This document shows positions 3,410 through 33,571 of a stretch of 33,571 bases of DNA, one piece after another (the stretch's first letter is position 1; each line of letters begins with the position of its first letter). The position numbers and the translations under genes were made by a program. The notes beneath the pieces are model-generated. The model did no database searches, had not been told where the DNA came from, and saw only the letters and a program-made list of their open reading frames with translations. Source of the stretch: Reclinomonas americana ATCC 50394 (taxonomy: Eukaryota); the NCBI GenBank assembly GCA_048213135.1, contig PS015291.1, positions 1 through 33,571 of the forward strand, in the 5' to 3' direction.

Positions 3410-6400
3410 CTACACATCCACCTTTAACGCCCCATTCAGCCGACCGATAAAGTTACCGCTGATCAGCACACTTCGACAGTCGACCGACAACAGCAACTGC
3501 GTCTCCAGTATGCCGACAGCATTCGAGCCCGTAACCCGATCGAGCTTGACGGTGCCGGTGGGTAATATGGACTCGAGCGCACGCTTCAGCCGACTCATCT
3601 GCTGCTCCGCACTCCGTTCTCCACCGCCTCCCTCCTCCTCATCATCATCGTCCTCGTCCTCGCCATCGACGCTGGTGTAGTGAATGACAATCTGCGACGA
3701 ATCGCCGTCGTACATCACCGTGTTGTGTCGGGCATTGTCGGCCGTAAAGTGTGACACCAACAGCAAGTCGAGATACGAGGCGAGGACGCGGGGATGCTGT
3801 TGTTGTTGCTGCTGCTGCTGCACCAGTGATGGTGGCGGTTCACTGCCGGCCGTGACCGGCCACATTGCTGCCGTGGCATTCACCATGGCTGGTGTCGACG
3901 TGGGGTGAGGGATCTAGAACTTGCATCACACACACTGAACTACAAACCCGTCGCCTGCAGTGCCTGCACCGAGAGCTCGTCGACTGCATGAGCGGCCGCG
4001 GTTTGCCTCTGTTCGAGTTGAATGAGGCGCTCGGAGGCGGCACGCATCTGTGATACATCATGAGCACATTGCCGGGCGATTTTTTGTTTTTTGTGACGCG
4101 ACTGTTTCCTCCCGTCGACGCTCTTCTGCGCGCGGCGAAGGTGACAGTCGACTGCGCTCGTGCTGCGCGAGATCCCCCAACTTGGATAGCTGGCCCACCA
4201 GTGAGTGACATCAACAAACGAACGAGGGACACGAAAGATGTGTGTACCTCTTGTCGGNNNNNNNNNNNNNNNNNNNNNNNNNNNNNNNNNNNNNNNNNNN
4301 NNNNNNNNNNNNNNNNNNNNNNNNNNNNNNNNNNNNNNNNNNNNNNNNNNNNNNNNNNNNNNNNNNNNNNNNNNNNNNNNNNNNNNNNNNNNNNNNNNNN
4401 NNNNNNNNNNNNNNNNNNNNNNNNNNNNNNNNNNNNNNNNNNNNNNNNNNNNNNNNNNNNNNNNNNNNNNNNNNNNNNNNNNNNNNNNNNNNNNNNNNNN
4501 NNNNNNNNNNNNNNNNNNNNNNNNNNNNNNNNNNNNNNNNNNNNNCGGCACATCATTATCACACAAATAAACTCACGCACCTCGTGCTCGGCATGCCGAC
4601 TGCGCATGGCCGCCCGTGTCTCCTTCAACTCATTCAACAGCTCCTGCTCACGTCGCTGCAGGTGGCGCACAGAGGCCTGGCACTGCGCCACGCGTGTCGA
4701 CCAGTCTGTGGTGTTCTCTTGCACAATGGCGGCAAGCGACTGCGTTCTCTCCCTCGCGATTTTCAGCGCCGCGTCGAGATGCTCCACGAAGCGGTCCCAG
4801 TCGTCGCTGGCAGGAATTGATCTAGCGCGCACACATCAGAGACGCAAGCGGTACGCGAGCCCTCATTGGCAAGACACAACGTACCGACGAACGAGCTGCG
4901 CATTGGCCTGTGCGAGACGCGAGGCGAATTCTTCCAGCCACGCTCCGTCCACCGGCACACATCCTCGCCTGTCGGAATCATCGTCAGGCGAGGCTGGCGG
5001 GCAGACAAGGAGTAAAAGAAAAGGTCACCTCTCTCCCGCGGCAGCCTCGGCCATGGCCATCAGGTCAGCTTGCACACTGCCAGCAATCTCGCCCAGTTGC
5101 CTGCGCAGCGCGCCCGTTTCACCCTGCTGTGCGGGGAGCACGGAGCCCGACGACAGTGTGCGAGCCACCTGCTGCAACAATGCCAGTCCTCGTGCGCCCG
5201 TCCACATTTCGATATCTTCATTCGCGGCGGCGGGTGAGGGGACACGCATCGTGGTACGCACGCACGCACGCACAAATTGTCGACGCAACTCTTGAGCAAG
5301 GCCAGGCAGTCCGCCTGCTGTAGCGCACTCTCGGTGGCCGTCCGCAAGTACCGTACATAGTCGCGCGCGTGCTGCTGAACGAGAGGTTCGTACGACGAGT
5401 TTGGCGTACTTGGCGACCCGGGGTTGCTTCGTGTCGATGGCGGTGATCGCGGCGGCACAGTGGATTTCACCGACGGAGACGTTGTAGTGGTGCCCGTTGC
5501 CGCAGAGGCCGCCGCGACTACCAACTCTGGTTGGAGACGCGCGTGTCGCCACGGTGCATCGCTCAGTTGCGAGTCCACGCGAGCAAACATGGAAGCCAGT
5601 GACCGCGAGGCGTCGCCTGGACACGCACACGCATTCATGGAACGATGAGTGTCGACAAAGAAACGCACAGTCGCCCCTCCCCCCAAAACACCAAAACACT
5701 GCCAACACACCATTGGTCGTGACGGTGCCGGGAGACCGCGACGGAGAAGATTCGCGCGCGGCATTTCCTTCAGTGTGCACCGGCGGCGGCACCACCGTCC
5801 ACATGGGTGGATCAAAAATGGTCAGTTTGAAGCGACGTTGGTTGAGCAAGTCCGCTGCGCGCGCCGTGTCAGCCACAAACAGTTATAGACTCGCCACCTT
5901 GCATATTGATTGCAAAACGCACCCACGGGCAAGTTGCAACAGAGACCGTCGGCATGATACTGCTGTCCGTCGAATCCACCCCACGAGAAGACGAGGACCG
6001 ACTGCGGACCTGTGTGACCCACAACGACGCCTGCGTGACCGCTGCGACCGCTTGGCAAATCCATGGGCGCCGGCAGCCGGTACGACAGCCAATAGTCGCG
6101 ACTAGAGGCCAGATCGCGAGACGTGCCTCCATTGGAGACGACCACCGTGTCTATTCGAGTGTTAGAGAGAGAGAGAGAGGAGGGGAAGAAGTGGAGCGGA
6201 GGGAGAATGCAGCAACTGTCAATGGAGCGCTTCAGCAGGAACGAGTCGTGGCAGCGACCGGCGGCCTCCCAGCCTCCCCACAGCATCACCGCCTGACTGT
6301 CTGCATGCAGGCCGACCGACACCATCGTGGCGTAGCAGCGCTTGGATGGCATCGCGTCACCCAGCAGCGTTACCATGCGCCACGTCCATGTCACTGCATG

Positions 6401-7526
6401 ATCGAGGAGGTCGGGAGAGTGGGTGCCACGTCTTCGAAAGTGAAGACACATACGAGGACGCAACACGTGTTGAGGATCCAGCAATCGTCCAGCATGTTGC
6501 CGTCCTCTCCGAGACCACCAAACACCAGCAGCGAATGCGCATCGACGAGTGCAGTCGAGTGGCCTTTGCGAGCTGGCGGGGACGGCCCATCGAATCGTAT
6601 CCGCGTGCCGAGTCTCGTGGCTGCGCAGCATGAGAACTCTGTCTGCGCAACCATCACCACCGCAGACGCAACTCGGATCAATCACAAACGCATCGGCGCA
6701 AAAGCCCGCCGTGTCAAACCCAAACAACACCACCACACGAATCGCCTTTTCCGCATCCACAGTCGACGGCGACGCAGCCGATGGTGACGACGACTGCTGC
6801 TGCGGCGTTGCTCCCAACGACAACAACGAGGGCGCACTGGGCGCCACCAGCACAGCATCGGCCGAGTGCCCGTTGCGCCCAGTCGGCACATCGCCACGCA
6901 GCGAGTACATTGACCAGCGGAAGCGCGATGTCGTTGCTGCAAGAAACAGTCACTTGTTACTGTACACAAGACTGGCATGCATGCCTGAGAGAGAGAGAGA
7001 GAGAGAGACGCAACAGTCGCGTTGCAGCACGTAGGCATCGTTGAGGTTCTGCCGCCCGTTCCACCCTCCAAAGAGCAAGTATCGACATCGCCGAGGAGGC
7101 GACACCGACACAAATGCATTCCACAGTGCTGTCATGCTGTGTCCCTCACGCGAGGTGGGCACATCGCCGCAGAACGAAGGCCACCGATACACACTTGTCA
7201 CTAACACACAGTGAAAGAGAGAGAGTAAGTGTGTGTGTGTGTGTGTCGAAGAGAGCGGAGTATTGTTCAACAAAATGCAATGCACACACGCTCACCTGGA
7301 TCCACTTCGACTCCATCGCCCAGGTGCCCGTGCGCATCCGAGTATCCGCCCCACACAAGCACATTCATCGCCTGCATGCACGAGAGACACGCGCGCAACA
7401 TTGTCAGCATTGTGCTCACTCTCTCTCTCTCTTTTTCTTCTTTGCTCGCTCACTCACATCCGAGTCGGTGCTGGCGACCAGCACCGCCGAGTGTCGATGT
7501 CGAGGGAAGACCACACGTGACTGCAT
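3410..7526 (-). CDS. Kelch-repeat beta-propeller (6 blades) + low-complexity linker + coiled-coil protein
   Basis: Six Kelch units after splicing: PRHRHSA..VWGG, TSREGHSM..LLFGGWNG, TGRNGHSA..VLFGFD, PARKGHST..LVFGGLG, SKRCYATM..MLWGGWE, SGRSGHAG..SWGGFDG. Heptad-rich exons follow (VRHLQRREQELLNELKETRAAMR; MRAASERLIQLEQRQ), and the last exon ends at stop 3410. One internal gap (4258-4545). The 5' end is either ATG 7526 or lies in the gap 7549-8028. Confidence 0.75.
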
Positions 7527-8028
7527 AGCAGAAGCAGAAGCAGCAGATNNNNNNNNNNNNNNNNNNNNNNNNNNNNNNNNNNNNNNNNNNNNNNNNNNNN
7601 NNNNNNNNNNNNNNNNNNNNNNNNNNNNNNNNNNNNNNNNNNNNNNNNNNNNNNNNNNNNNNNNNNNNNNNNNNNNNNNNNNNNNNNNNNNNNNNNNNNN
7701 NNNNNNNNNNNNNNNNNNNNNNNNNNNNNNNNNNNNNNNNNNNNNNNNNNNNNNNNNNNNNNNNNNNNNNNNNNNNNNNNNNNNNNNNNNNNNNNNNNNN
7801 NNNNNNNNNNNNNNNNNNNNNNNNNNNNNNNNNNNNNNNNNNNNNNNNNNNNNNNNNNNNNNNNNNNNNNNNNNNNNNNNNNNNNNNNNNNNNNNNNNNN
7901 NNNNNNNNNNNNNNNNNNNNNNNNNNNNNNNNNNNNNNNNNNNNNNNNNNNNNNNNNNNNNNNNNNNNNNNNNNNNNNNNNNNNNNNNNNNNNNNNNNNN
8001 NNNNNNNNNNNNNNNNNNNNNNNNNNNN

Positions 8029-9160
8029 GAGGGTGACGCGTGTGAGCCAGCCAGTCACAACACGCAAAACACTTCACCCCCTACGCAACACTGTGGTTCC
8101 ACGACCCTCCAGGCAGTCCTTGAGCAGCAAGCCGAGCATGCTGTCCTCGTAGTGAATCTCGCTGGTGGGCCGGCGCTCGGAGATGTCGCGCAGCAGGGCG
8201 CGGAGCGTGCCGAGAGACGGGTTCGGGTTCATGTCGCGCTGTGCGCCCTTGTTCGGCTGTCGATCAATCAGCGAGTGCGCGAGGTCGACGAGCACAAGCT
8301 TGCCAGTGACCGACGTCTTGGTCAGCGGCCTGAACGAGTCCACGAACAGCGTGTACACAATGTGTGAGCGGTAGCTCTCGCGACGCAGCACCACCCGGTC
8401 AAAGAGATCCTGCTCGTGTCGGATTCGTCAGACTCGCGCAACAAACACACACATAAAATGTTACACAAACGAACCACCAGCGAGTCTTCGCTCTCCACTG
8501 TCAGCAACTTGACATTGCGCAGGAACACATGCTGGCCGTCTTGCTCGTAAACAATCGATTCTGTCGAGGCGACGACGTGCGCGTGAGATTTTCCATCAGA
8601 GACACTGTTCTTGTCATAAAGATGAATGCACTCACCGTTGGTGAACTCGTCGTCCGAGAGAATGTCGCGGACACGGTTCTCCAGCACCTCGATCACGCTA
8701 ACGCGCAGGCGCACCTGGCCGCGGTAGCTCAACTCCTGCCGCTTGGCCTCAATCTGTCGATATGCGCGACTGACAATGCCAGGCTCAGGGGCCAGGCCCT
8801 TGGCTGTCGGCTCGCGACCGTGCAGGGAGAACTCCTTGCAGGCGCTGCCGAGGCCGTAGAACAGCAGACCGACGGCGTTGCCCTCGAACAGCGAATCCAC
8901 CATGGGTTCCAGAGGCGCGTACACCTCCTGCAGCAAAAGGTGAGCGACGCGAGGAAAAAATGTCGAGTAAAGCGAGTGGGACGGCACTCACCGGCTGCGT
9001 GTTGAGGTGATCAAACACGTGGTCAAAGTCGTAGCTGCGCGCGGCGTGCTCCACAAAGGTAATGGAGCGCGCATTGTCCACATCCATGGCGGCGGTCGGG
9101 TTCGAGAACCACTCCGATCCGGTAAATGGTCGCACACGGCAGTACACCTTGACCGTACCC
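8029..9160 (-). other. Kinesin-like domain 6 (degenerate; end in gap)
   Basis: GTVKVYCRVRPF; YDFDHVFD; FYGLGSACKE; YRSHIVYT; GKLVLVDLAHS; IHYEDSMLGLLLKDCL. Confidence 0.85.
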
Positions 9161-12100
9161 GGACCGCGTGAAGCCGCTGCACGAGAAACGGGAAATCGGA
9201 GCGTGAGATATTGACCAGCCAGACTCCTTTTGATGATGACTGAGACGCAACGAGTATCCGACGCCTGCGAACACATCCACATGGTGGCGGGGGCCATTGG
9301 GCGCGTCGACGATGCCGGTGGTGATACCGACTTGTTCGCACGCGCGGACGATCGACCAGCGCTTGATGCGCTGCGCGGACCGGGGCTCACTGTGGAGCGC
9401 GACGATGCCGTGGGCTGGCTCGACGCTGACGGCGGTGCACTGGCTGCCGCAGTCACTGCCGGTGCCTGTGTTTGTGTGTGTGTGGTTCATCACTGTCAGC
9501 AGGAGTGCAATTGTGACACGAGAGTGCAACAACTCGGCTCTGCACGCACCCGCCGTGGACTTCTGGTGTGCTTCACGCCCGCAAACTTGAGCGTGTTCAG
9601 CGTTTCGTCCACATCGAGTGCCGACGGTGACACGTGCAGGAACAGACTGCACCGACAAACGTCAGACTCAACGATGACAACGACAAGCAGAACACTTCCG
9701 GCGCGTCACACACGCAACATGGTGCGGAATGTCCGGCTAAACACATGCTGCAACAGCATGGTCAGCTTGTTCTCGCGCCAGCGCGGCACACGGTGGGTCG
9801 ACGGATCCATCATGTTGCGCAGCAGGTTGCGCAGCGAGTTCAGCGACTGGTTGACGGCCACAGAATCGGCCTTGACCTGCAGGAGGAGAACAGAATCGAC
9901 ACTTGAGGAGTCGAACAATCGCTGCCACCACCGCACTCGAACAGACACGAAACTTCGATTTCAGTGCGCGTCTTGAACGCACGCTCGGAGCCGGCCAGAT
10001 CCGCAAAGAACAGCGAGCCCTGAGCCGGCGGTGAAGACGGATCCGACAGCGAACGGAGCGTCACCACCACGCGGAAGAGCAGGTGTGAACGATCGGGAGT
10101 GCGGCGAGACATGGCCTCCTCCAGGCACATCTGCATCACCGAGGTCAACAACAACTGGGGAAACCGAGACACACAATCGCCAGCGCCACTACCCACCATC
10201 GCATCCTCGAAGCAATCGACACGCATGTGAACTGCACCACGCACAAAAGCGCGATTGCGGCTCTTTGACATGTGCACCGTCAACTTGGGTACCAACTCGT
10301 CCTCATTCTCCGGCTCGTACAGCAGATCGGTAATGTCCTCGCCGCACACTTGCAGAATGCTCCACACCACGTCGGTCACCTCGAGATCGTAATCTGCTCA
10401 CAAACAGTGAGACGAGAGGAACACGACACCACTTCCATCCAGCAGCACACCCACCTTCCAGTTGGCTCGGATCTTCGCTGGCAATCGCCTCACGCTGCGC
10501 ACGGGTGCGCATGAAAATGCGGTTCAACGACCGTGCCAACAGACCTGGGTGCACAGGAATTCAGCAAAAGGCATGTCCACCGAAATCAAGATGCTTGCCA
10601 CACGTACCAGGATCACGCGGCTCGCCCAACATGGTGTGCGTCTTGCCGGCGCTCAACTGGCCGTACGAAATAATGCAGCTCTCGTGACCCGACAGGCACC
10701 ACTCGAGCACATCGTCCACTGAAGCAGCCGCCTCCTGCTCAGCAGCAACCATCGGTCAGTCATCGTCGAGAGGCAGCACGTCGGGGTCGACGCAACATCC
10801 TGAGTGACATTGTAGTCCAGGGCTCGGTCCACCGAGTAGTACTTGTACTCTTGCGACTTGACCTCGACACGCACAGTCTTCTCGTCCGGCATGTCGACAG
10901 CCGGCGAGTACTCACCATGCTCCATCTCCAGGCGGTTGAGTGGGCGCACACGGCAGAACACACGCAACGCGCCAGAACCGAGCAAGCCTGATGTGGATTC
11001 CAATCGTGAGAAACAGCGAGAGGCGAAAACACATTCGACGGGTACGCAACTGGCTCCTGACACGGCCGAATCGGGGCGCGGAATCGGAGACTCGCGCGGC
11101 GTTTGTGTGGCCAGCGTCGGGCGCGCCTTGATGCGGTGGCCGAGAATCGAGCGGCCAAAGATCATGGTCTGTCGGCTTCCCTCCACGTCACCCTCCGTCG
11201 GTGCCACATGCAGGAACACACTAATGGAACAAATCGCGGTGAGATGCACGCCGACAGCAACTGTATCAAAAAAGGCACGCACATGGACTTGGCCGGGGGC
11301 TGCAGGCAGTCGCGGCACACCATGGCGATCTTGCTCTCGCGCCACGGGGCACGTCCTTGAATGAGCTTGTGCAGCACATTCTGCAGAGCGGCGAGCGAGG
11401 CGTTCGGGTTGACCTCCTCCACGGCGGCCTGCGTCGGCACCAATCCAGTGGCCAGCTCCACGAAGCACAGCTTGCCCACGGTCTTGGTCTTGGTGCGCGG
11501 GTCAAACACCTCCACCCACAACGTCACCAAAATGTGCGCCTTGTACGTGCTGCGATGTGCCAGCGAGTCCGTCACCACCTCCATCACGTCGTGGTACGTG
11601 TCCACCGGCACGACTTCGACATGCTCCAAGTACACCTCGCCCGACGCCATCATGCGCACCGACGGCTGACGAGCGGCAGCCAAGCTGCGGCGCTTGGCAT
11701 CGGCGCTCTTCTCGGCCGACGAGCTCGTCACAAAGTCGGGTCTTCGTGGCCGCGACTTGCGCGGAGCATCGTCCGTTGTCAACACGGCAGAAGTCTTGCG
11801 CAAGTGATCCTTGGTCTCCTTGGCCATCAAATCGACCATGGTGTCACCCTGCTCGCACATTGACAGAATGAGCGCCTCTAATCTTGCAATGGTACAAAAC
11901 ACACTGTCATGTAGCGCGCCACGCACCCGCAGCTCCAAGACAGACGCGCGAATGGTGATTGTCTCCGTCTCCTCGTCGACCTTGCGCTGGAAGAAGCGAT
12001 GGCACACCAACCCCAACATCTCTGGTGGTCACACGCAAACACTGGGCGTCAGCCAAACGAAAAAGCAAAAAAAACTTGTAGAAAAACAAGTACACACCAC

Positions 12101-15100
12101 TGGAGAAGCTGCTCTCCTCCAACGCCTTGCCACTGTCCATGGAGCCGGCGCAGAAAATGGCAGCGCCGTAGCCGTTCATGGCATGCGTCGCCAGTTCGTC
12201 GACGTGCTTCTCCGCCGACTGTTACGCGCACACAACAAGAGCGGTGAGATGGAACATTGCCGCTGCATGTGCTACCCGTGCGTGCAACTCNNNNNNNNNN
12301 NNNNNNNNNNNNNNNNNNNNNNNNNNNNNNNNNNNNNNNNNNNNNNNNNNNNNNNNNNNNNNNNNNNNNNNNNNNNNNNNNNNNNNNNNNNNNNNNNNNN
12401 NNNNNNNNNNNNNNNNNNNNNNNNNNNNNNNNNNNNNNNNNNNNNNNNNNNNNNNNNNNNNNNNNNNNNNNNNNNNNNNNNNNNNNNNNNNNNNNNNNNN
12501 NNNNNNNNNNNNNNNNNNNNNNNNNNNNNNNNNNNNNNNNNNNNNNNNNNNNNNNNNNNNNNNNNNNNNNNNNACCAGTGAGCACACAGCGAACAGAGAA
12601 ACATGAATCAGTCGGCAATCCGTCGCAACTCCAGTGGCTTCCATGTTCTCCAGCGGCAGCACCAACGCGTGCTCCACGTACACCTCACCGGCGCGAGTGA
12701 CGCGCAGTGCGAGGCGCTCCGACGGCGGCACGTCCGTGTCACTGTTCTCAAACGCCGTGCGCAGCAGGTCCTCAATCTCGTCCGACGGCGTCAAGCGCAC
12801 CACCGAGGCGCGCACCGACACCACAGTGCCCGACGACTGACGCATCGATTCGGCCTGCTCGAACAGCTTGCTCAGCGACAGCGGCAGCACACCTACCACC
12901 AGAACATGTGAGAAACGCAATCCAGCAATGGATGGGAAACGCACTTCATCACTCACCCCACTCGCTCTCGCCCAACAACGTGAACGTCTTGCCAGAGCCG
13001 GCATCGCCGTAGAACAGCATCGAGGAGTCGTTGCCCTGCAGGGCCCAGTCCACCAGCTCGACGGCGCTACCAAACACCTCCGACTGCGTGGCCTCCGGGC
13101 CATAGGCGTGATCCATCAGGAACGACTTGCCGTTGTTGAGGTAGACAGTGTCCTCGTCGGCGATACGCGAAATGCCAACGCGATCGACCACAGTCGGATC
13201 ATTGTCCTCTTCCTCGTTCAGCGGGCGCACACGAGAAATCACACGAATGTCACCCGGCGACTCGGCAGCCTCCGACTTGCCAGCCGCAATAAACTGGTAC
13301 GTCGGCTTGACCGACTCGTACTTCTGTCGCATTGACCACCAACAAAAGTTAGTTCACCACAGCGCAAGAGCAGGGTCGAGCGCAAGGGCACGAAACTCGG
13401 CCAGCAAGCTCGCGGCGAATGTCTGCAAACTGCATCGTCAGCAGGTTGTCCTCCAAGTCGTGCTCCATTGGTGAAATATGCGTGTAGAGCAGAATGCGCG
13501 AGTTGAACTCCATGCAATCGCGGACGAGGTGCGTCAGCTTGTTCTCGCGGAAGCGCGGGTACGACTGCGACTTGCCGGCGTCCATGATGCAGCGCATCGT
13601 CGATCGCAGGTGCATGAGGGTCTGGTTGGCCACGGTGCTGCCGGAGGTGATGTCATCGCGGTAGTGTGCCTGCTCAGGCGTCGGCAAATCCACCAAGGCG
13701 ACCTTGCCCACCAGCTCGTCACCCGTGCGTCGGTTGGTCGTCTGCACGTAAATAATGATCACCAAGCTCGTCAGCAGGCGTGCGACACCGTGCTCCAGCG
13801 CGCGGAGGCGACGGGCGACGCCCGGCACGCGCTGCGCGTGGAGAACAAAGGAGAAAATAATGATGTGAGACCATCCATCAGGTGAAGCAGAAAAATAGTC
13901 ATGTCGACGCACCCACAGCTCCTCGGCATCCATGCGCTCGGTGACCACATTCTCCAAAATCGTCTCGCCATTCGCGGCGGTGCGGATGACAACCTTTTCC
14001 TGCACGAGGCATTACTGTGTCAAGGCAGGATTGCAAACACGACGGCCACCGGTGAAGCAAACCTTGGCAGAGCGACGGCCCACCAGGTCGGAAATCACAT
14101 CGCCGTCCACATCGAGCACCGCACACGTCCAGCGAATGTTCTCAATGTCGGGATGATCGGGGGCGCTGTCGCGAATCTGGCGCGTGAGCTCGCTGATCAG
14201 GTGACCAAAGAGTCCCTGGTTCGGCTCGTCCGGCGTGCCAAACATCGACGCCAGCTTGTCGCCAGACTTGGCGCCATACGCAAACACCGACGAGGAACGG
14301 CCGTCCAGAGCACCGTCAATCAGGCTCTTGAAGCGCGCACGAATCACGTCGTCGTCGACGGTCGGCGGGAAACCCGTGTCCACCTTGAACGTGGATCCGT
14401 CAATGAGGTCGACCTGGTGGCCGTTGAAGCCCGAGACCACCACCGACTGCACAGCAGAGGCGAAAAGTGAGTGGCGGCGAGAATAAAACAAGAAAAAATA
14501 TAGCACGTTCTCCTACAACTCACCGTCGGTGGCTCCTCGTTCGCCTGTCCGCGCTCCTCCTCGGCGTACTGGCGCACACGAGTAACGACCTTGACGTCGC
14601 CGAAAACGCGCTCGCCGTCGGCTCCGAAACCGAGCTGGTTCTGCGAGCCCTCACCAGCACCGGCCGGACCCATTTGCTCGGCCACGCGCGACTTGATCGA
14701 GCGCGAGCTCACCGGTCCACTGGCGCCATCGCCACGCTGCTGCTGCTGGCCCTCGTCTCCGTACCAGCCAAAGTGCAGCGTCTGACGCGTCTTCTCCAGC
14801 TCGCTGGCGGTGGGTGCAACCGTCAAAATGACGGCCAGCGACGCCGGTTCCGTGAAAAAGTCCTTCAGGAACATGGTCAGCTTGCTTTCGCGGTAGCGCA
14901 CCACCGGCTGATCGCCCGCATGCGCCGGCGGCTCAGCCAGTGCGCGGAGCACGTTGCGCGTTGCCGTCACCGACTGGTTGGTGCGAATGCCCTCGGGACT
15001 CAACTGTGTGGCAATAAAGTGAATACGTGGCGAGCGCAATAGCAACGCGGGGGAAAAGAGGCGACGCACCACCATGCGTCCGGCGCGATTCGTGCGCACA

Positions 15101-18050
15101 GCCGGCACCAAATCCACGCACACAATGCGGGTCTCGAACACCGTGGCCTCTGCGATGAAGAGAAAAGCGAATCAGGTGACGAGCGAGAAATCGATCTTCG
15201 TGCGCGCATACTCAACTGTCTTCCTCGCCCGGCATCCATGTGGACACGAACACGTTGAACGTCACGACCACGTGGGCGACAGATCGCAGGGCCGCCTCGC
15301 CGTCGGCGTTGATGAATGACACAAACGTGCGCGCGCCAAACGACTGCTGCAGTGTCTCCTGTAGTCGACAGATTGAGAACGACAAGGAAGGACAAAAGGA
15401 GGAGAGTCAAAGAGAACCAACCTTCAGCACATCGGCATCCTCGCCCGGACGCTCATCGAGGCCCTTGAAGATCACCGAGTGACCAATGACGCGGACGCTG
15501 ATTTTGCTGTCCTCGCCGCGCGAAGCCTTGATGAGGTCATTCGCTTCGTCGCCGCACATTTGCGCCACTGAGTAGTTGAAGGCCAGCGAGCCGTTCTCTC
15601 CCGGCTCACCAAACTCGAACGATGCCGGATCACGCTCCAGTCGGTCACGTTGTGAGCACAGCTTCTGGCACACCGTCAACAGGAACTCTGCACGTCGAGT
15701 AAGCAGACTGCCCGTTATCAAACAGACTGCGCGCGCACAGAGACGTACCCTCAAAGACGCGACCACGGCCAGACTCCACGTGGCCGTGGAAAATCAGGCA
15801 TCGGTTGTGTCCGCGCAGAGCATCCACGACGGCTGCACTGGTGATCTCCTCGACCACCTCACGCTTGGTGTCCGACGACACAACGCGATCGTAGTCGTAG
15901 CGGTGTCCGTCGGGGAGCACCACAGTGTTGCCGTCGACCACCTCGTAGACCTGCATGGGGGGGTGAGTGAGAGTGAGTGTGGAGAATATGTGCTTTTGCG
16001 ACAGTGAGGGGGAAGCGCACCGGACGAGCGTTGCCATTGTCTGACTCCTTTTGCGTGAAATTGCGAGAAATGGTCTGCACCGAGAACGGGCGACGCCACT
16101 CCGAGCCATCCTCGAGCTGCACGGGCGTGCGACCACAGAACACATTGATCTCTGGCTCGACAACCTCCACCGCTGCGCACGAAAAAAATGCGCAGTGAGC
16201 GTCTTTCAGCAGTCAGTGAGTGTGAAGAGCGCACGCAACGAGCAGAGGGTGCAGGCGGCGGGCGCTGGACCACAGGCGCTGGAGCCTCGCGCTGCTGCTG
16301 CTGCTGCTGTGGGGGCGCAGCTTGTGGAGCCTTCGGCGGTGACGGAGGCTTCTGCTTCGGGCTCTCAGGCTGCACGTTCCACCAACAGTGTCAATGACCA
16401 CACAGACAACAGTACACACACACACACACACGCAAGATCAAACACACCTTTTCAGGGCTGGACTCGGGCGTCGGGTACTCTGGCGGTGGGGGCGCTTGCT
16501 TCTTCGGCTCCGGCGGCGGAGGCGTGTAACGCAGCTCCTCTTCCGACTCGGCACCGCCCTCGCCCTCCTCACCGTACTCGTACACGTAGTAGTCCTCGTC
16601 AACGAGCTCTTCCTCCACAGCCGCCGCGCTCTTTTGTACCTTGGGCGATTGGCTGTCGCTGTGGTGCGAACACACTCATCGGTGAGCGCCGACTAGCGAA
16701 TAGACGAAAAAATCAAGATCAACAAAACCACGCACCGTGGCTGCTCGCGCATCGTAATCGACTGCGGCTGCGACGACTGCTGTGCGGATCCAGAAGCGGC
16801 ACTGACCACACCGCTCTTCACCTCGGATGCCGCCGGCTGCGCACCCTTGTTGTCGGCGTTCTTCACCGACGGCAATCCGGTGCTCCACACCTCATTGGAG
16901 TCCACGTCGGTGGTGTCACCATCGGTTTCCTCCTCCTCCTCACCGCCACCCTCCTCGTAGTACTCGTAAAAGACCTCCTCGCCACCGACCTCGGTCTGCT
17001 GTACCTCTTGTGTCTGGCGTGAAGCGTCCTCCGCAGCACGACGAGNNNNNNNNNNNNNNNNNNNNNNNNNNNNNNNNNNNNNNNNNNNNNNNNNNNNNNN
17101 NNNNNNNNNNNNNNNNNNNNNNNNNNNNNNNNNNNNNNNNNNNNNNNNNNNNNNNNNNNNNNNNNNNNNNNNNNNNNNNNNNNNNNNNNNNNNNNNNNNN
17201 NNNNNNNNNNNNNNNNNNNNNNNNNNNNNNNNNNNNNNNNNNNNNNNNNNNNNNNNACGTCCACATACTTGGTCGTGGTGATATACCGCGTGGTGACTGT
17301 GTGGGCGTTTCCCTGCGCATCACGTTCCGTGTGCTCCTGAATATCCTCCGACACCTGCGTCTTGTCGTCCAGGTTGTATTGCTGCGCGTGCGCACAAAGG
17401 TGAGTGCAAGAGCGGGGGGAGGAGAAGGGGGAGAGGGAGAGGGAGAGGGAGAGGGAGAGGGAGAGGGAGAGGGAGAGGGAGAGGGAGAGAAGGGAGGGAG
17501 AAAGGGTGGGAGGAGTTGCAGAGTGTGTGCAGGAGAGAGACACAGAGCGTGTGAGAGAGTGTGAGAGTGTGTGCCCAAGGGAGAGAGAGAAGGAGAATCG
17601 CTGTTCCAACGGCACCCACCCTGTGCATTTCGCGATCGCCTGCTGGCGGCAGCTCCTCCTACACATGGATCGATCACCACAGTCAACAACGCGAACGTTC
17701 CACCAGACACACGAGCGATGAGTATACACAACTGCATTCGCCACGACGCGCACTTCCTGCTCGACCTCCTCAGGCTACACAGAACAGACACACACAAGTG
17801 AGGAACACAACGAGGATGACAACCAAGAGACCAGTGATCGCTCACTTCCTCAACGACCTCCTCCACCAGCGGCTTGGGCTGGCCTGCGCATCATGATGAT
17901 CACGGATAAGGATTCGCCTTTGGTGCATGACGACACATGCATGATTCGCACACACACGAACCGCGAGCAAGTTGGCGTGACATCGCAGCTTAAACAAGAG
18001 TCGCAGAAAAACGAACTTTGCTCTTGCTCTGCTCTCTCGCTCCCTTTGCT
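8029..18050 (-). CDS. Giant multi-exon protein: acidic/Pro-rich N-terminus followed by at least six tandem kinesin motor(-like) domains (kinesin-14/KCBP-like)
   Basis: Repeated kinesin landmarks: beta1 (I/V)(R/K)VxxRVR, P-loop region, GKLx(L/F)VDL, (Y/W/F)RExKL, FLHV(S/A)P..ETLxTLxF. Domains 1-2 and 4-5 are joined within single open frames. Domains 2-3 and 5-6 are joined by in-frame GT-AG introns (13324-13396; 9466-9549). The 3-4 junction, the start and the stop lie in or near gaps. Confidence 0.85.
9575..10975 (-). other. Kinesin-like domain 5 (best conserved; possibly catalytic)
   Basis: GALRVFCRVRPLN; SYGQLSAGKTHTM; DRSHLLF; FADLAGSER; VNQSLNSL; PRWRENKLTMLL; FLHVSPSALDVDETLNTLKFA. Confidence 0.9.
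11150..12290 (-). other. Kinesin-like domain 4 (degenerate; start in gap)
   Basis: NGYGAAIFCAGSMDSGKA; SVLELRGDTMVDLM; GEVYLEHVEVVPV; GKLCFVELATG; PWRESKIAMVCRD; IVFLHVAP. Confidence 0.85.
12574..13257 (-). other. Kinesin-like domain 3 (N-terminal half visible; intact P-loop)
   Basis: GDIRVISRVRPLN; FYGDAGSGKTFTL; GVLPLSLSKLF; GEVYVEHALVLPL. The remainder runs into gap 12291-12573. Confidence 0.85.
13410..14601 (-). other. Kinesin-like domain 2 (degenerate)
   Basis: GDVKVVTRVR; AYGAKSGDK; GKVALVDLPTPE; PRFRENKLTHLVRD; YTHISPMEHDLEDNLLTMQFA. Confidence 0.85.
14765..16152 (-). other. Kinesin-like domain 1 (degenerate)
   Basis: EINVFCGRTP; P-loop region FHGHVESGRG; switch II region VDLVPAV; VRYRESKLTMFLKD; ILTVAPTASELEKTRQTLHF. 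Confidence 0.8.
17425..17500. repeat. (GAGAGG)n microsatellite inside an intron
   Basis: About 10 hexamer copies, directly visible. Confidence 0.95.
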
Positions 18051-19057: not shown

Positions 19058-22000
19058 GCTGTGCGGGCTCGACTACTTGCACAAGCAGCATGTGTGCGTT
19101 GTCAGTCGCCTTCCGTGACTTGGTGGTGTGCCTCGCTTGCTGATACAGACGACCACGTGCAGGGTGCATCGCGATCTGAAGGGCAAGAACGTGCTGATGG
19201 TGAATGGCGCCGATGGGACGGTGATCAAGCTGGCCGACTTTGGCTGCAGCACGCTGCTGTCGACTGGTCGGCAGGCTCTGACTGCTGGTGTCGGCACGCC
19301 CGGTTGGACGGCTCCCGAGGTGTTCAAGGGCGTCGGCTACGACACCAAGGTCTGCATGTGTGTGTCTGGGCATCGAGCGAATGTCGTGCGCCCCACTCAC
19401 GCCATCGTGATCAGGTGGACATTTGGAGTCTGGGTGCCACCGTGCTCGAGTTGTTCACCGGGCAGGTGCCGTACTCGGAGCTCACCAATGTGGTTTGTGG
19501 CAATGGTGGATCGTGCTGCACCGTCCATAACTTTGACACTGACAGCGACGACATGCGCAGCCGGCCGTGATTTACAAAATGATGACAACGGCAGAGCCGC
19601 CACTGATTCCGGCCGACTTGTCGGCGCTGGCCAAGGACTTTCTCTTGCTATGCTTCAGAGCGTTGCGTGGTTGCGCTGTTGTTCCTCGTCGTCCTTGCTT
19701 TGATTTCTCACGACGACGACAACAGAAATCCCGCCGATCGACCCACCGCCGAGGACCTCATGTCGCATCCGTTCATCACCAGTCATCCACGCCACGCTGA
19801 CGCCGGGCCGCTGCCACACGCACCGGTTAGGCTGCAGAGTGCACGTTTTGTCTGTTGCCCACGATGCACTCATCCCCGTCTCACACATCACACAGCCGTC
19901 ACTAGGCGGATCGGGATCCAGCTCGGGTGAGTCGCCGCCATCGCTCTTGTTTTCCCGCCTATCGCTGACACTCATGTACTTTGTGTGCTGGTCGGTGCAG
20001 GATCAGGAAGCATGCACAGTCTCATGTCGAACAGGAGAGGTGGGTCGCTCCATCCTTTGCACTCGAAATTCACTCCAATCACACCTCTCCGTGTAGTCGA
20101 AAGCTCCGACTTGATACACCAGATGCACCGAGTGGCCGCCATTCCCATCAATGTGAGCATCAGCCCCGTGGGTCGATCGCCCACTGCCTCGTCGTCATCC
20201 GCCGGCGATTTTCGAGTTGAGTGTGCTGCTACCACGTCGTCCTCTCCTCCATTCGACTCACCTGCTTCACTGCACTCTTCTGGGCGCAGTTGTACACCTT
20301 GGTGCGCAAGGCACCGCACGCACCACGCTGGATTTTCCCGTCACACGCCGCCATGGCCGAGTCGTTGATCGACAAGTTGGTGCACGACGGATGCATGCGA
20401 GGTGCGTGATCTCCGTCTTCTCCCACTCTCCCTCTCTGTGTGCTCTGACACTGCAGGTGCACCAGGCGCGACTGGCATTATTGTGATTGAGGGACTTGCC
20501 GGCTTTGGCAAGAGCACTCTCGCATCATTAATCATCGATCGCATGTGGGAGCGCAAGCTGGTGCGCGGACACGTGCTGTACGTGGATCTGTGCGGTCATT
20601 TGGAGAGTCAGCAACATCGCACCAGTGCCAGCGCCGTGGAGCAGCTCTTTTTGCAGCTGAGTGCACCACGTGCCGAGTGGCTGCTGAAACAGAACACGGA
20701 GCCGGCGGTGTTCATGCAGTCGTTTTACGCGGCACTGGCTGTGGAGGCGCCGGAGGAGCGCGCCGTGGTGTTTCTCGACAATGTCGGGTCCGCCGAGCAG
20801 CTCAAGAGAATCATGCCGCGCGACATTACGCACGCATGTTGCGTGGGCGAAGGCATCACTGCTGCCGTCGCTCCGTGTCGTGAGTTCTCATTGTGATCGT
20901 GCAGATGGCGGCGCGTGCGGACCACTGTTTCTGGCCACCAGCCGACACTCCATCTCGCCGTCGCTGGCCGCCGACCTGCCGCGCGACGTGTCGCTGGCCA
21001 CTGCGCGTACGGAGCAGCTCACCGAGGGAGACTTGACGGCGTTTGTCGAGTTCCACCACCCCGATGCCGACGAGCATGTGCGCCGCCTCCTCCTCTCCAT
21101 GAAGTATCCGTTTGCACTCGGCACTGTGTCGAGGTGCTCCTGTTATGCGTTGTCCTCGTCGATCTGTGTCTCGTTTCACTCACACAAGTATTGCCAGCGC
21201 ACTAAAACGCGAAGGAGCCTTCTTGTCGTCGTCGGAACTGGAGGCTCTGTGTGCACAATTGAACCGCGAAGCCTTTGAGGATGTGCTGGACTCGACAGTG
21301 CGCCAGCTGACTCAACCGCAGCGACGCGCATTGCTGTCGTTGGCTGCGGTGGAGCGACTGCCGGCCGTCAGTATGAGGCTAATTGTGGTGCTGGCGGCGG
21401 AGGTGGTGGATCCGCTGCCGTCAAGTGACGGTGCGGCAATAGCGACCTCACCGCGTTCTCGTGACACCATGGTGGTGACGTACCTGCGTGGCTTGCTGGC
21501 CGATCACTCGCTCCATGTGGTCGAGCGAAACGGGCATTGCATCGTGGCGTGGTCGTCGAGTTCACCGGAAGACCGTGACACCGACCTGCCGACGTGTGTC
21601 ACCTTCAACACGCACAACCTGTATCCGGACTACTTCCGCCTGCGGTGGCCTCGAGCATTGACACAGGCGCAGGGCACACTCATGCGTCTGTTGTCGGCCC
21701 TCATCCGCAAGGCGACGTTGCAGGAGAAGGCCCAGGCGCAGTTGATGAGCATGTTTGGCGAGCACGTCAAGGCGCTGTGGGACTACTTGGCCGACGGCCG
21801 CTTCGACAGCGACTTGCCGTTCTGGCTAAAGACAATCGACGCGGTGTGCGAGGCAGCGCGTGTCACGCCAGCGAGATTCCGCGAGCGAGTTGGCGACGTG
21901 CTGCGCGCCATCTCCACGCCTGCAGTCACCAGCGCGATGGAGGCCGACGACAACGTGGCCGCCGCGGTGCACAAGTCGCGCAGTCTGCTGTACCATCTGG

Positions 22001-23610
22001 GTTTGGATGAACGGCGGTCGATGGAGGAGATGGAGGAGAGCTTGCGGCTGCGCATGCGCGCGCATCCCGGTGATTCTGCACCGGAGGTGATTCAGGCGCA
22101 GCACGACCTCGCCACTGCGTGCCGCCGCTGTCCTGCACACGTGGAGAAAGCAGTGGCCCTGTTCCGCGCCGTGCACGCTGCGCGCAGGGCGCAATTGGGT
22201 GAGGTGCGAAAGTTTTCGAGGGTACCAGGGAGTTTAGATTTGTTGGGTAACTCACTGACTATTGTATCAGGATCACTGCGACACACTCGGCGTGGCTGGT
22301 GACCTGGCCGAGGCCCTTCATTTGTCCGGCAACTTCCAGGAGGCCTCCAAGATACTGGTGTCGGTGGTGCAAAAGTGGCAGGCGCTGCACGGGGCAGCTG
22401 ATCCGCTTACGCTCACGGCACTCAGCCATTTGGCTTCCGTGTTGCGCTCTCAGGGCTTTTTGTCCGAGGCCGCAAAGCTGTACGAGAGGGTGCGTACTCT
22501 GTTTGAGGAGGGTCTGTCTCCTCATTCGGTAGCGTACTGAAAGGAGTGGCAATAGGTTCGTGTGGGACTGGAGACCGCACTCGGTCCGAATCACAGCGAT
22601 GTGCTGGCCGCAATCAACAACCTGGCCACGGCAAGTTTGCACCCTGCACGAATGGTGCCGACTTTTGAACGTGCTCTCACTGTTCTGTGCGTGTGCAGAC
22701 GTGGCGTGAATTGGGGCGAGTCGCCGAGGCCGTCACACTCCTCACGGACTTGGCCGACACGAAGCGTCGTTTGCTCGGCGCCGAACACCCGGACACGCTC
22801 ACTACTTGTTTCGTGTTTGACGCCACGTCCATGATTCCTTCATCGTTCTGTCGCTCACCCAGTCCACGTAGTGAACAACCTGGCACTGGCCATGGAGGCA
22901 CAGGAGCCACCGGACTTGGCCGGGGCGGCGCGACTGCACGCCATGGTCCTCGAAACCCGCACACGCACACTCAGCAGCGCCCATCCAGACACGTTGCGTG
23001 ACGATTGTTGGCGTCGCTGGTGAATGTGTGCCGCTCACGTGTATATATGATCGTCGGCAGTATCGTGTCGGCCAATAATCTGGCGGTTCTCTTGCGACGG
23101 CAGCATCACCACAGTGAGGCAATTTCGTTGCTTCGGGAGAGTGCCGAACGCGCGCAACACATTCTGGGTCCCGACCACCACTTGGCGCTTACGGTGCGCG
23201 CCAATCTGGCCTCTGTACTCGACGAGGCTGGATTTGTGGAAGAAGCCGTGGGGATGAACGAGGATGTGTTGGAGCGTCGGCGACGTGTTCTCGGTCCCCT
23301 GCATCCCAATGTTGCGTGCTGCAGGCTGGTGATGTTGTCAATGGTACGTGCCAGCAGCACTGACTGTGGTCAGCGGGTACAGACACTGGTATCCATGGTG
23401 AACTTGGCGTTGCTGTACCACGAGCGGCAGCAACGCACGGCAGACGCCATTCCGCTCTTGTCGACCGTGCTCGAGGAGCGCAAGCGCACGCTCGGCGACG
23501 ATCATCCGCTGACACGGGCCGTGCGCGTGGATCTCGACAACGTGCGCAGCTCTTTACCTGCCGCACCAGCAGCAGTAACAGCACCGCCACCACCACCACC
23601 ACCACCATAG
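19058..23610 (+). CDS. Ser/Thr kinase (MAP3K/STE11-Cdc15-like) fused to a STAND NB-ARC-type NTPase and C-terminal TPR repeats (NLR-like architecture); kinase N-lobe in gap 18371-19016
   Basis: Kinase: GLDYLHKQHVVHRDLKGKN, KLADFG, GTPGWTAPE, VDIWSLG, RPTAEDLMSHPF. NTPase: Walker A GLAGFGKS, Walker B VVFLDNV, sensor-like LATSR, YPFAL. TPRs: LGxxHPDTLxxxNNLA-type repeats. All exons splice in frame to TAG at 23608-23610. Confidence 0.85.
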
Positions 23611-23722: not shown

Positions 23723-25974
23723 TCAGCGGCGATAGCGGTGCTTCTTGAAGTTGAAGTACAGCTGCAGCACACCGCGATCGAACGTGCACCGGTAGCCGCG
23801 GCGTGAGCTGTGCTCCCACTCCTTGTTGGCGATCTTGAACGCAATATCCTCGTACGGCGGGCCGGCTGAGAAGCGGATGGTGCACTCGTCGGGGTGATCG
23901 CCCGGCAGCAGCTGGAACACCGGCGTCTTGGTCTTGTCGATCAGATCCGGGTAGAAAATGTTGAACTGCGCAGCACAACGCGTGTCAGCATACATTACAC
24001 GCTCCTTCCACACACACAGTGGGTGAATCGACGTACCTTGTAGCCCGACACGGTCTTTGGCGGTGGGTTGTCGTGATCGTAATGCGTCTGGTTGTACTTG
24101 TTCCAGTCGAAGGCCGTGTGAATGCGGTTGAAGTAGCGCGGCTTGCGTGGTCGGAACTTGTCGAACATTGAGTACCGCTGTTGATCGAGAGGGACTTCCT
24201 CCGAGAAAATCGCCTCGTCGTCCTCCATTGGACGCTGCGCCTCCACTGCATACAGCTCGTCGTCGGTCTGTGTGGAGAAGAGGTGGTGAGACATGGGGGT
24301 AATCACCNNNNNNNNNNNNNNNNNNNNNNNNNNNNNNNNNNNNNNNNNNNNNNNNNNNNNNNNNNNNNNNNNNNNNNNNNNNNNNNNNNNNNNNNNNNNN
24401 NNNNNNNNNNNNNNNNNNNNNNNNNNNNNNNNNNNNNNNNNNNNNNNNNNNNNNNNNNNNNNNNNNNNNNNNNNNNNNNNNNNNNNNNNNNNNNNNNNNN
24501 NNNNNNNNNNNNNNNNNNNNNNNNNNNNNNNNNNNNNNNNNNNNNNNNNNNNNNNNNNNNNNNNNNNNNNNNNNNNNNNNNNNNNNNNNNNNNNNNNNNN
24601 NNNNNNNNNNNNNNNNNNNNNNNNNNNNNNNNNNNNNNNNNNNNNNNNNNNNNNNNNNNNNNNNNNNNNNNNNNNNNNNNNNNNNNNNNNNNNNNNNNNN
24701 NNNGGGAGAGGGGAGAGGGGAGGGGAGAGGGAGAGGGAGAGGGAGAGGGGGAGAGGGAGGGGGAGGGGTAGGGGGAGGGGGGAGACGGTGAAATGGGTGA
24801 GAGAGAGGGAGGGAGAGGAGGAGATTGGTGAACACGAGGAGCAAGAAATGCATGCAAGAAACAAAATATGGGAGTGACGAGAATGAGACCACAGACAAGA
24901 GGACACAAAGAGAAAGGCGAAAGGAAAGGAAGCAGCAACGCGAGACATGCAGAGTGAATGCGCGTGTGATGAGGGGGAAGAAACAAAGAAAGGAAGCAAC
25001 GGCGAAATGAAGCGCATCGAGCAATAGTGAGCAAGTGGCAGGAGAGAGAGAGAGACGGGAGTGACACAATGTGTAGAGAAAATCAGTGCGCAATGTACGT
25101 GTGTCGGGCACGTGAAGAAGAGGAGAGAACAAACGTCAGGGAGTGACAAAAAAGAAAACAAAGGCGAGACAACGAGCCGTGAGAATGGAAGAAAAGGGGA
25201 AAGAAACAAAGTAAAGAAGTGACAAGAAAGCAACAGCGTATTGAGCAGAGGTGCGAGAGTGACATAAGAGAGAGAGAGAGAGAGCAACGACGTGGGAGAC
25301 ACAATGTATGCGTGCGCATGAGAGATAAGGAGAGATCAACCACACACTCACCTGCTCCTCCGAGACAGAATCCGGATCGAGTCCCTTGTCGCGCAACACC
25401 TCCTCGCGCTTCTTCCACTTGAACTGCGTGCGCAGGGAGCTGTCGGCCCACGGGTTGGAGTCGTCGGTGAAGCCGCCAAAGAGCGCTAGCTCATCGACGC
25501 GCTCCTTCTCCTTGCGTCGCAGCTTGCCGTCCTTGCGCTTCTGTCGCTCTTCGGGGGTCTCGCGAATGCGCTGCAGTCTGTGAGTGGAGGGGGTGAGAAG
25601 CAGGAAAAGAGAGGAGAGGGTGGCAATGCGGAAGAGGTGAGCAGGGAAGGTGGGTGGGGATGGACACAGTAAGCACGTAGCGAATCAAGAGCAGGAGAGT
25701 CGAAGGGAGAAAAACGAGAGAAGCGAGACAGAAAGAGATAGAAACGCGGACAAGGGCACAACGAAGGAGATCGACAGGGAGAGGCGACTGAGTAAGAGAT
25801 ATCAGGAAGGGCAGAGACGCGACGAAGAGTGTGTGAGACGCAAAAGAAAGAAGAAGAAAGAGAACAGGAGAGAGGGCGTCAGAGTAGAGGAGAGAGGAAG
25901 GGAGAGAGGGAGAGAGAGCGACAGAGCAGACAAAGAGAGAGGGAGAGAGAAACACGAAGACAGAGAGAGGGAGG

Positions 25975-26024
<50 letters not shown>

Positions 26025-31318: not shown

Positions 31319-33571
<2,253 letters not shown>

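Follow-up and report, generated by a model that had tools for sequence, protein, structure and literature searches.

Six tandem kinesin-motor-like domains, most with degenerate nucleotide sites, predicted on one protein of Reclinomonas americana

The minus strand of a 33,571-nucleotide stretch of Reclinomonas americana ATCC 50394 (GenBank assembly GCA_048213135.1, contig PS015291.1, positions 1 to 33,571 of the forward strand; hereafter, the window) encodes six tandem kinesin-motor-like domains, numbered D1 to D6 from the N-terminus. Our preferred reading, which we hold with somewhat more confidence than doubt, is that they belong to a real, selected, multi-exon gene encoding one very long polypeptide, of which more than 2,200 residues are resolved and more lie within assembly gaps, and that the heads would together form a nucleotide-independent, multivalent microtubule binder. 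In the proposed protein an acidic and then proline-rich N-terminal region would lead into the six motor-like domains; these would act as nucleotide-independent, 'rigor-like' tubulin-binding modules, and the molecule would serve as a microtubule-associated staple, bundler or spacer that clamps rather than walks. One or two heads at most (D5, perhaps D3) might retain a nucleotide-sensitive affinity that tunes attachment. We infer static microtubule binding, and with it crosslinking, from sequence and analogy, because the arginine of helix alpha5 is retained in four of the five domains in which it is visible, because the microtubule-facing strips of D1, D2 and D5 are basic, and because there is precedent for such heads.

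By profile, all six domains belong to the kinesin superfamily (the PF00225 motor fold). Stop-to-stop pieces of the raw strand matched PF00225 above its curated cut-off in six of ten cases in a first set and three of seven in a second; weaker PF00225 or PF16796 matches fell on two further pieces in each set, and Pfam matches were absent for the remaining two of ten and two of seven. A hidden Markov model (HMM) of the canonical kinesin motor domain, based on three proteins (P0006, P0008, P0009), maps six consecutive N-to-C passes through the motor domain along the minus strand. Once spliced, every domain matches this model near full length (E 1.3e-16 to 3.4e-42, for a search against one sequence), D5 giving the best match. 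The PF16796 matches on N-terminal halves and the best Protein Data Bank (PDB) match of the D3 N-terminal half, KIFC3 (5wde, E 1.2e-12), lean toward kinesin-14, with kinesin-5, -1 and -13 chains close behind; the C-terminal half of D2 matches KIF2C (8.8e-08) and KIFC3 (1.6e-07). Since the scores of kinesin-14, -5, -13 and -1 chains differ by only a few bits, no domain is assignable to a subfamily from these matches. The domains are 20–32% identical to canonical kinesins and stand at the same distance from each other (18–32%), so the duplications are old and the copies have been retained.

Motif states were read from an alignment of the spliced domains with the same three kinesins. All of the motif strings quoted in a preliminary description of this DNA are present on the minus strand of the spliced model (Table 1), and none is interrupted by an intron. 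The Walker A motif, GxxxxGK[ST], occurs in D3 and D5 alone among the six domains; the Switch II motif, DxxGxE, occurs only in D5 among the five domains visible at that position, D3 being cut by a gap; and the full Switch I motif, NxxSSRSH, occurs in none of those five. D1, D2, D4 and D6 thus lack both the Walker A GK[ST] and the DxxGxE of Switch II, in agreement with the earlier statement that most repeats resemble pseudo-ATPases. Judged from these residues, the four are pseudo-ATPases whose P-loop, Switch I and Switch II are incompatible with canonical hydrolysis chemistry. Among 22 nucleotide-site columns identical in the three references, D5 keeps the most (16/21), followed by D6 (11/21), D4 (7/17), D1 (8/22) and D2 (6/22). 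The P-loop and DLAGSE of D5 had been called intact, and they are, with Switch I reduced to RSH as described, but the domain is not fully canonical: it lacks the Asn and both Ser of NxxSSRSH. Roughly 13 residues before the Switch I motif are missing from D4, D5 and D6 (in D5 this leaves loop L9 some 13 residues shorter than in the references), which explains why the Asn of NxxSS is absent even from D5. The earlier estimate of at most one or two nucleotide-sensitive heads (D5, perhaps D3) fits these motif states and may be generous, because Switch I of D5 is incomplete and the D3 switches lie in a gap.

The same motifs bear on the strongest competing explanation, a tethered motor, to which we assign a modest chance. 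Here D5, and perhaps D3, would be a working ATPase, the dead heads of the same chain would act as diffusive or holding microtubule tethers, and the molecule would either move slowly and processively or hold force as a brake, much as the Vik1 and Cik1 heads serve Kar3. D5 combines GxxxxGKT, DLAGSER and the RSH of Switch I with the best HMM match of the array, D3 retains GDAGSGKT and RVRP, and non-catalytic motor domains are reported to enable processive Kar3 movement (PMC4338441). Against a tethered motor stand the residues missing from Switch I and L9 of D5, the position of the D3 switches within a gap, and the stretch after alpha6, where neither a neck coiled coil nor a neck-linker-like sequence was seen by eye.

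On the microtubule-facing side, the L12/alpha5 motif had been described as persisting. This holds for the seven-residue alpha5 core: the heptad [YFW]RE[SN]K is retained in four of the five visible domains, and its arginine is kept in D1, D2, D4 and D5. It does not hold for the alpha4/L12/alpha5 strip as a whole. Of the 22 alpha4 and L12/alpha5 columns identical in the three references, 13 are kept in D1, 7 in D2, 13 in D4, 9 in D5 and 9 in D6, while the other reference-identical columns are kept at 10/42, 20/44, 17/34, 21/42 and 22/40, respectively, so that by comparison the strip has fared better only in D1 and, by a small margin, in D4. Additionally, the canonical 'LG' of alpha4 reads L[RQ] in all five visible domains. 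The L11-alpha4-L12-alpha5 strip carries a net charge of +4 in D1, +2 in D2, +1 in D4, +6 in D5 and 0 in D6, and D1, D2 and D5 as whole domains are negative (−14, −10 and −8, respectively) despite their basic strips.

These observations also bear on the possibility that the kinesin folds have been re-used for protein–protein interaction in a scaffold that has lost microtubule binding, with the alpha5 heptad serving only as a fold determinant. We think this rather unlikely. Such a scaffold would be in keeping with the strips of D2, D5 and D6, which show no more conservation than other parts of these domains, with the loss of 'LG' in all five visible domains, and with a possible C-terminal Kelch propeller directly downstream; it sits poorly with the retention of the alpha5 arginine in four of five visible domains and with an L11-alpha5 strip that stays basic in D1, D2 and D5 although these domains are acidic overall.

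Within each half of the array the domains are physically joined. D1, D2 and D3 are continuous in frame, as are D4, D5 and D6. A single exon (15003–14524) contains alpha4 to alpha6 of D1 (PF00225 positions 251–321 of 327), a 54-residue linker and beta1 of D2, and another (11220–10797) contains beta8/alpha6 of D4, a 58-residue linker and beta1–beta3 of D5; D2–D3 and D5–D6 are joined in frame through introns. The four visible linkers are of low complexity and 28–78 residues long, and no coiled coil was seen in them by eye. Upstream of D1, the frame stays open through three introns into the N-terminal exons and up to the gap at 17046–17256. These exons are extremely acidic and rich in Tyr and Glu (EEVFYEYYEEGGGEEEEE, EDYYVYEYGEEGEGG) before giving way to a Pro/Lys/Gln-rich stretch, and no Pfam family was found in them (16240–17043). 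Their acidic composition recalls the C-terminal tails of tubulin. Probable mini-exons beyond the gap are split by short introns and by one longer intron with a (GGGAGA)12 repeat; a start codon was not located in the upstream sequence read there (17381–17900).

Between the two halves, D3 ends and D4 begins in mid-domain at the gap 12291–12573, and this raises the possibility of two three-domain genes (the N-terminus with D1–D3, and D4–D6) or of contigs from paralogous loci that were mis-scaffolded. About 210 residues are missing there, and with their introns they could not fit into the 283 Ns, so either the gap size is underestimated or the join is wrong. However, neither strand nor domain order changes across the gap, its flanks both end in motor-domain introns or exons rather than in untranslated sequence, and gap sizes in drafts of this kind are estimates; we consider two genes or a false join improbable, to about the same degree as the scaffold. 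The window is a draft scaffold of a GC-rich eukaryote with eight runs of Ns, and long microsatellites adjoin several of them (24704–24811, 25881–26021, 31890–31990 and 32085–32622; (GGGAGA)n, (AG)70, (AC)50 and a (TCTCCTCTCT)-like array). Because these repeats lie directly beside the gaps, they suggest repeat-induced assembly breaks with estimated sizes.

Read without splicing, the minus strand from about 16200 to 8030 switches its coding-like frame more than 12 times in 8 kb, and its longest open reading frame is no longer than 297 residues. Every one of these frame changes coincides with a GT..AG interval of 61–96 nucleotides (nt), and they are introns, not lesions. Automatic gene prediction proved unreliable, since it called spurious weak introns and overlooked in-frame ones, and was not used; the intron set was curated by hand, each junction being read by eye and tested for frame continuity. 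It comprises 27 introns, a minimum for the gene, with 13 in the segment 17043–12574 and 14 in 12218–8092, with a median length of 67 nt and a GC content of 0.52. All 27 donors are GT (most commonly GTGCGT and GTGAGT, with GTTGCG and GTTTCG recurring), the acceptors are CAG in 25 and TAG in 2, and a yTnAy branch-like motif lies 7–45 nt upstream of the acceptor in 24. The two spliced segments are open for 1187 and 1045 codons (2232 in all) with 0 stops, as compared with 27/29 and 28/18 stops in their alternative frames.

Comparison with a related protein fragment, P0001, provides an outside view of two frame changes, where the DNA has GT..AG intervals of 76 and 78 nt. P0001 reads straight through the window's frame change at SFSS|EMLGLV, and it has an unrelated 20-residue insertion exactly at an in-frame stretch of odd composition in the window. 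A trypanosomatid gene with frameshifts was also considered and was rejected on the insertions and contiguity of P0001 at the frame changes and on the canonical GT..AG introns; the genome is not of the intronless, trypanosomatid-like type. Between 11849 and 12146 one intron position is common to the window and P0001 (after ELR), another (after SFSS) is peculiar to the window, and two apparent read-through insertions are confined to P0001, one of them inside the D4 P-loop. These differences suggest that introns are actively being gained or lost in this lineage.

The coding sequence bears the marks of selection in its most degenerate parts as well. GC at third codon positions (GC3) is 0.75–0.84 and at second positions (GC2) 0.40–0.46 in every domain, the most degenerate included, and each domain has 0 in-frame stops, versus 4–11 in each alternative frame. 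Close relatives beyond short fragments were not found among 1.84 billion representative proteins: a scan of these with a piece of D4 returned nine proteins at E<=1e-3, of which the four best are fragments of 71–196 residues from unannotated contigs, 35–77% identical. A profile search with the five Switch II–alpha5 exons returned only P0004 and P0002. Four orthologue fragments from other organisms (59–85% identical) each match a cognate domain. P0004 is identical to D6 at 67/101 positions (66%, vs 34% to D4), P0002 to D4 at 42/71 (59%, vs 33% to D6), P0003 to D4 at 39/46 (85%), and P0001 to D4 at 88/119 aligned residues (74%), outside 58 gap columns. The fragments retain degenerate motifs such as DLAHSL and ELAT, together with RES[YF]RSH, NPNPSL and PWRESK, and P0001 has Thr in place of the D4 P-loop lysine, which fits a nucleotide site that would no longer be constrained inside a domain that is. 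No longer relatives of D2 were found among proteins of 386–2000 residues, the Protein Atlas gave only generic kinesin and cactin clusters, and pattern scans for orthologous DNA in JGI metagenome contigs matched 92 and 241 stretches, of which 0 were confirmed.

With the sum of this evidence, neutral decay, which the preliminary description had named as a way for its interpretation to fail, does not apply: by these sequence signs the degenerate domains are under constraint. A decaying pseudogene or an error-ridden locus, in which the raw frame changes and stops would be real lesions, as the short open reading frames might suggest, is virtually ruled out by the data, since the changes all fall at intron-like intervals, removing these leaves no stop, relatives carry insertions at or contiguous sequence across the changes, and all domains preserve the GC pattern of their codon positions.

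Several points weigh against the preferred reading of a single static microtubule binder. The alpha5 arginine is replaced by Glu in D6, whose strip carries no net charge, and in D2, D5 and D6 the strip is kept no better than the remainder of the domain; the alpha5 heptad may have been kept for fold stability, not for tubulin contact. The aspartate in Switch I of D5 and the D3 switches within the gap leave room for real ATPase activity. The arrangement of six domains on one chain rests on the scaffold join across 12291–12573, and splicing and a single transcript are computational predictions. Furthermore, the donor, branch and acceptor features described above also guided the choice of introns, so their uniformity is partly circular; the open spliced frames without stops are the independent check, and outside support, from P0001 and P0003, extends to only two introns.

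A more specific version of the microtubule-binding reading, which we offer as a long shot, is a kinesin-derived lattice staple: six mostly nucleotide-blind heads would occupy six neighbouring tubulin dimers, making the protein a spacer or stabiliser of fixed length within a stable array of microtubules. The tubulin dimer repeats every 8 nm, and six dimers extend about 48 nm. The shortest linker (28 residues) could be just long enough to span one dimer, and D5 (perhaps D3) could be a nucleotide-gated latch. The acidic Tyr/Glu-rich, tubulin-tail-like N-terminus might be a built-in competitor for the heads, and a Kelch propeller at the C-terminus might be a docking site. If so, a motor family would have become a structural ruler that is conserved in a protist lineage of which few members have been sampled.

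Table 1. Features of the kinesin-like gene and its motifs in the window; intron coordinates are given in the direction of the minus strand.
Feature	Position	Strand	Details
Gap	17046–17256		Upstream of N-terminal exons; gene 5' end probably beyond
Gap	12291–12573		283 Ns; hides D3 C-terminal half and D4 N-terminus
Gap	7549–8028		Hides D6 C-terminal end
Further mini-exons (probable)	17381–17900	minus	PLVEEVVEE, PEEVEQE, EELPPAGDREMHR, QYNLDDKTQ...
N-terminal low-complexity exons	16240–17043	minus	Exons 17043–16736, 16658–16448, 16369–16240; open frame into D1
D1	14758–16172	minus	beta1 INVFCGRTP; HMM E 1.3e-16; introns 16020–15951, 15748–15688, 15421–15359, 15216–15150, 15069–15004
D1–D2 linker (54 residues) and D2	13406–14757	minus	beta1 VKVVTRVRQ; HMM E 3.1e-24; introns 14523–14447, 14062–14000, 13912–13832
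D2–D3 linker (28 residues) and D3 N-terminal half	12574–13405	minus	beta1 IRVISRVRP; HMM E 1.9e-24; linker intron 13396–13324; D3 intron 12956–12893; probable donor ~12629, then gap 12291–12573
D4	11142–12290	minus	N-terminus in gap; HMM E 3.3e-30; 12290–12219 is the 3' end of an intron; introns 12097–12022, 11926–11849, 11282–11221
D4–D5 linker (58 residues) and D5	9568–11141	minus	beta1 LRVFCRVRP; HMM E 3.4e-42; introns 10796–10735, 10607–10545, 10454–10394, 10196–10131, 9953–9877, 9709–9647
D5–D6 linker (78 residues, Ser/Ala/Pro-rich) and D6	8029–9567	minus	beta1 VKVYCRVRP; HMM E 8e-28; linker introns 9549–9466, 9272–9177; D6 introns 8991–8928, 8635–8561, 8474–8410; donor ~8091, then gap 7549–8028
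D1 P-loop	15785–15762	minus	GHVESGRG
D2 P-loop	14275–14252	minus	GAKSGDK(L)
D3 P-loop	13008–12985	minus	GDAGSGKT, intact
D4 P-loop	12146–12123	minus	GSMDSGKA
D5 P-loop	10662–10639	minus	GQLSAGKT, intact
D6 P-loop	8855–8832	minus	GLGSACKE
D1 Switch II	15114–15097	minus	DLVPAV
D2 Switch II	13690–13673	minus	DLPTPE
D4 Switch II	11458–11441	minus	ELATGL
D5 Switch II	10001–9984	minus	DLAGSE(R), intact
D6 Switch II	8286–8269	minus	DLAHSL
Switch I remnants			D1 LRSVAH, D2 GVARLLTS, D4 STYKAH, D5 TPDRSH, D6 ESYRSH; D3 in gap
alpha5 core			D1 YRESKLT, D2 FRENKLT, D4 WRESKIA, D5 WRENKLT, D6 YEDSMLG; D3 in gap

The array is followed, directly after the gap at 7549–8028, by a Kelch-repeat coding region on the minus strand (5775–7527) with weak Pfam Kelch matches and blade-like motifs (FPRHRHSAVLV, VLVWGG, LLFGGWNG). 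Between the gap edge and the first blade, across a Ser/Ala-rich stretch, its frame stays open, and the region could either form the C-terminal end of the kinesin-like gene or be a gene of its own that starts at an ATG near 7524. On the plus strand lie a protein-kinase fragment (19119–19700; PF00069, E 1.2e-13), a piece of a NACHT/NPHP3_N-type P-loop NTPase (20369–20893; NPHP3_N marginally above and NACHT marginally below the curated cut-off) and TPR_12/TPR_10 repeats (22259–22537; E about 2e-12), which may be parts of one or more multi-exon STAND-type genes. Beyond them, the minus strand encodes the C-terminal domain of cactin, a splicing factor (23726–25132; PF09732, E 3.8e-32), broken by the gap 24308–24703. 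Its closest relative is an unnamed protein 77% identical to it, and the top-scoring named match, P0010, scores high only through two domain copies. Because the best cactin relative is this distant and unnamed, the source organism appears to have no close annotated relative in the collections.

To our knowledge, kinesins are one-motor-per-chain enzymes, and a dead motor domain occurs either as one partner of a pair (Vik1/Cik1) or in unusual single-head proteins (Cos2, VAB-8), but in no other setting. Phrase searches of the literature, which are weak evidence, found no natural multi-motor-domain kinesin polypeptide; the architecture tables in the supplement of PMC2867816 may list some. If the preferred reading of a multivalent microtubule binder is true, the conservation, on one chain, of three or more (probably six) old and mutually divergent kinesin folds, most of them constrained despite ruined catalytic sites, would mean that the motor fold is re-usable as a repeat-type microtubule-binding module. 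The array would also bring together, within a single protein, natural variants that have lost the P-loop, Switch I or Switch II, and it could help to separate what tubulin binding needs from what hydrolysis needs.

The closest functional comparison is with Kar3–Vik1 and Kar3–Cik1, in which a non-catalytic kinesin-fold head is reported to bind microtubules and to work beside a catalytic one (PMC3384419, PMC4338441). As in those motors, a kinesin-fold domain without a working nucleotide site appears to have been retained here. The analogy with Vik1 drawn in the preliminary description is a loose one, however: each yeast motor has a single dead head and consists of two polypeptides held together by a coiled coil, whereas here up to six heads, most of them dead, would share one chain with a possibly live head, separated by low-complexity linkers with no coiled coil evident by eye. 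Drosophila Cos2 and C. elegans VAB-8 are likewise members of the superfamily with degenerate motor domains, immotile or highly divergent, but each has one motor-like domain, not six in tandem that are mutually 18–32% identical. Canonical kinesins (KIFC3 5wde, KIF2C 9n9h, Klp61F, KCBP) share profile-level homology over the whole motor domain and differ in their low identity to the array (20–32%) and in the Walker A and Switch II motifs that four of the six domains lack. In repeat-type microtubule-associated proteins, several weak tubulin-binding modules on flexible linkers give avidity and lattice-spanning binding. The likeness to the present array would be one of function only, its modules being not short repeats but complete globular kinesin folds of 290–365 residues.

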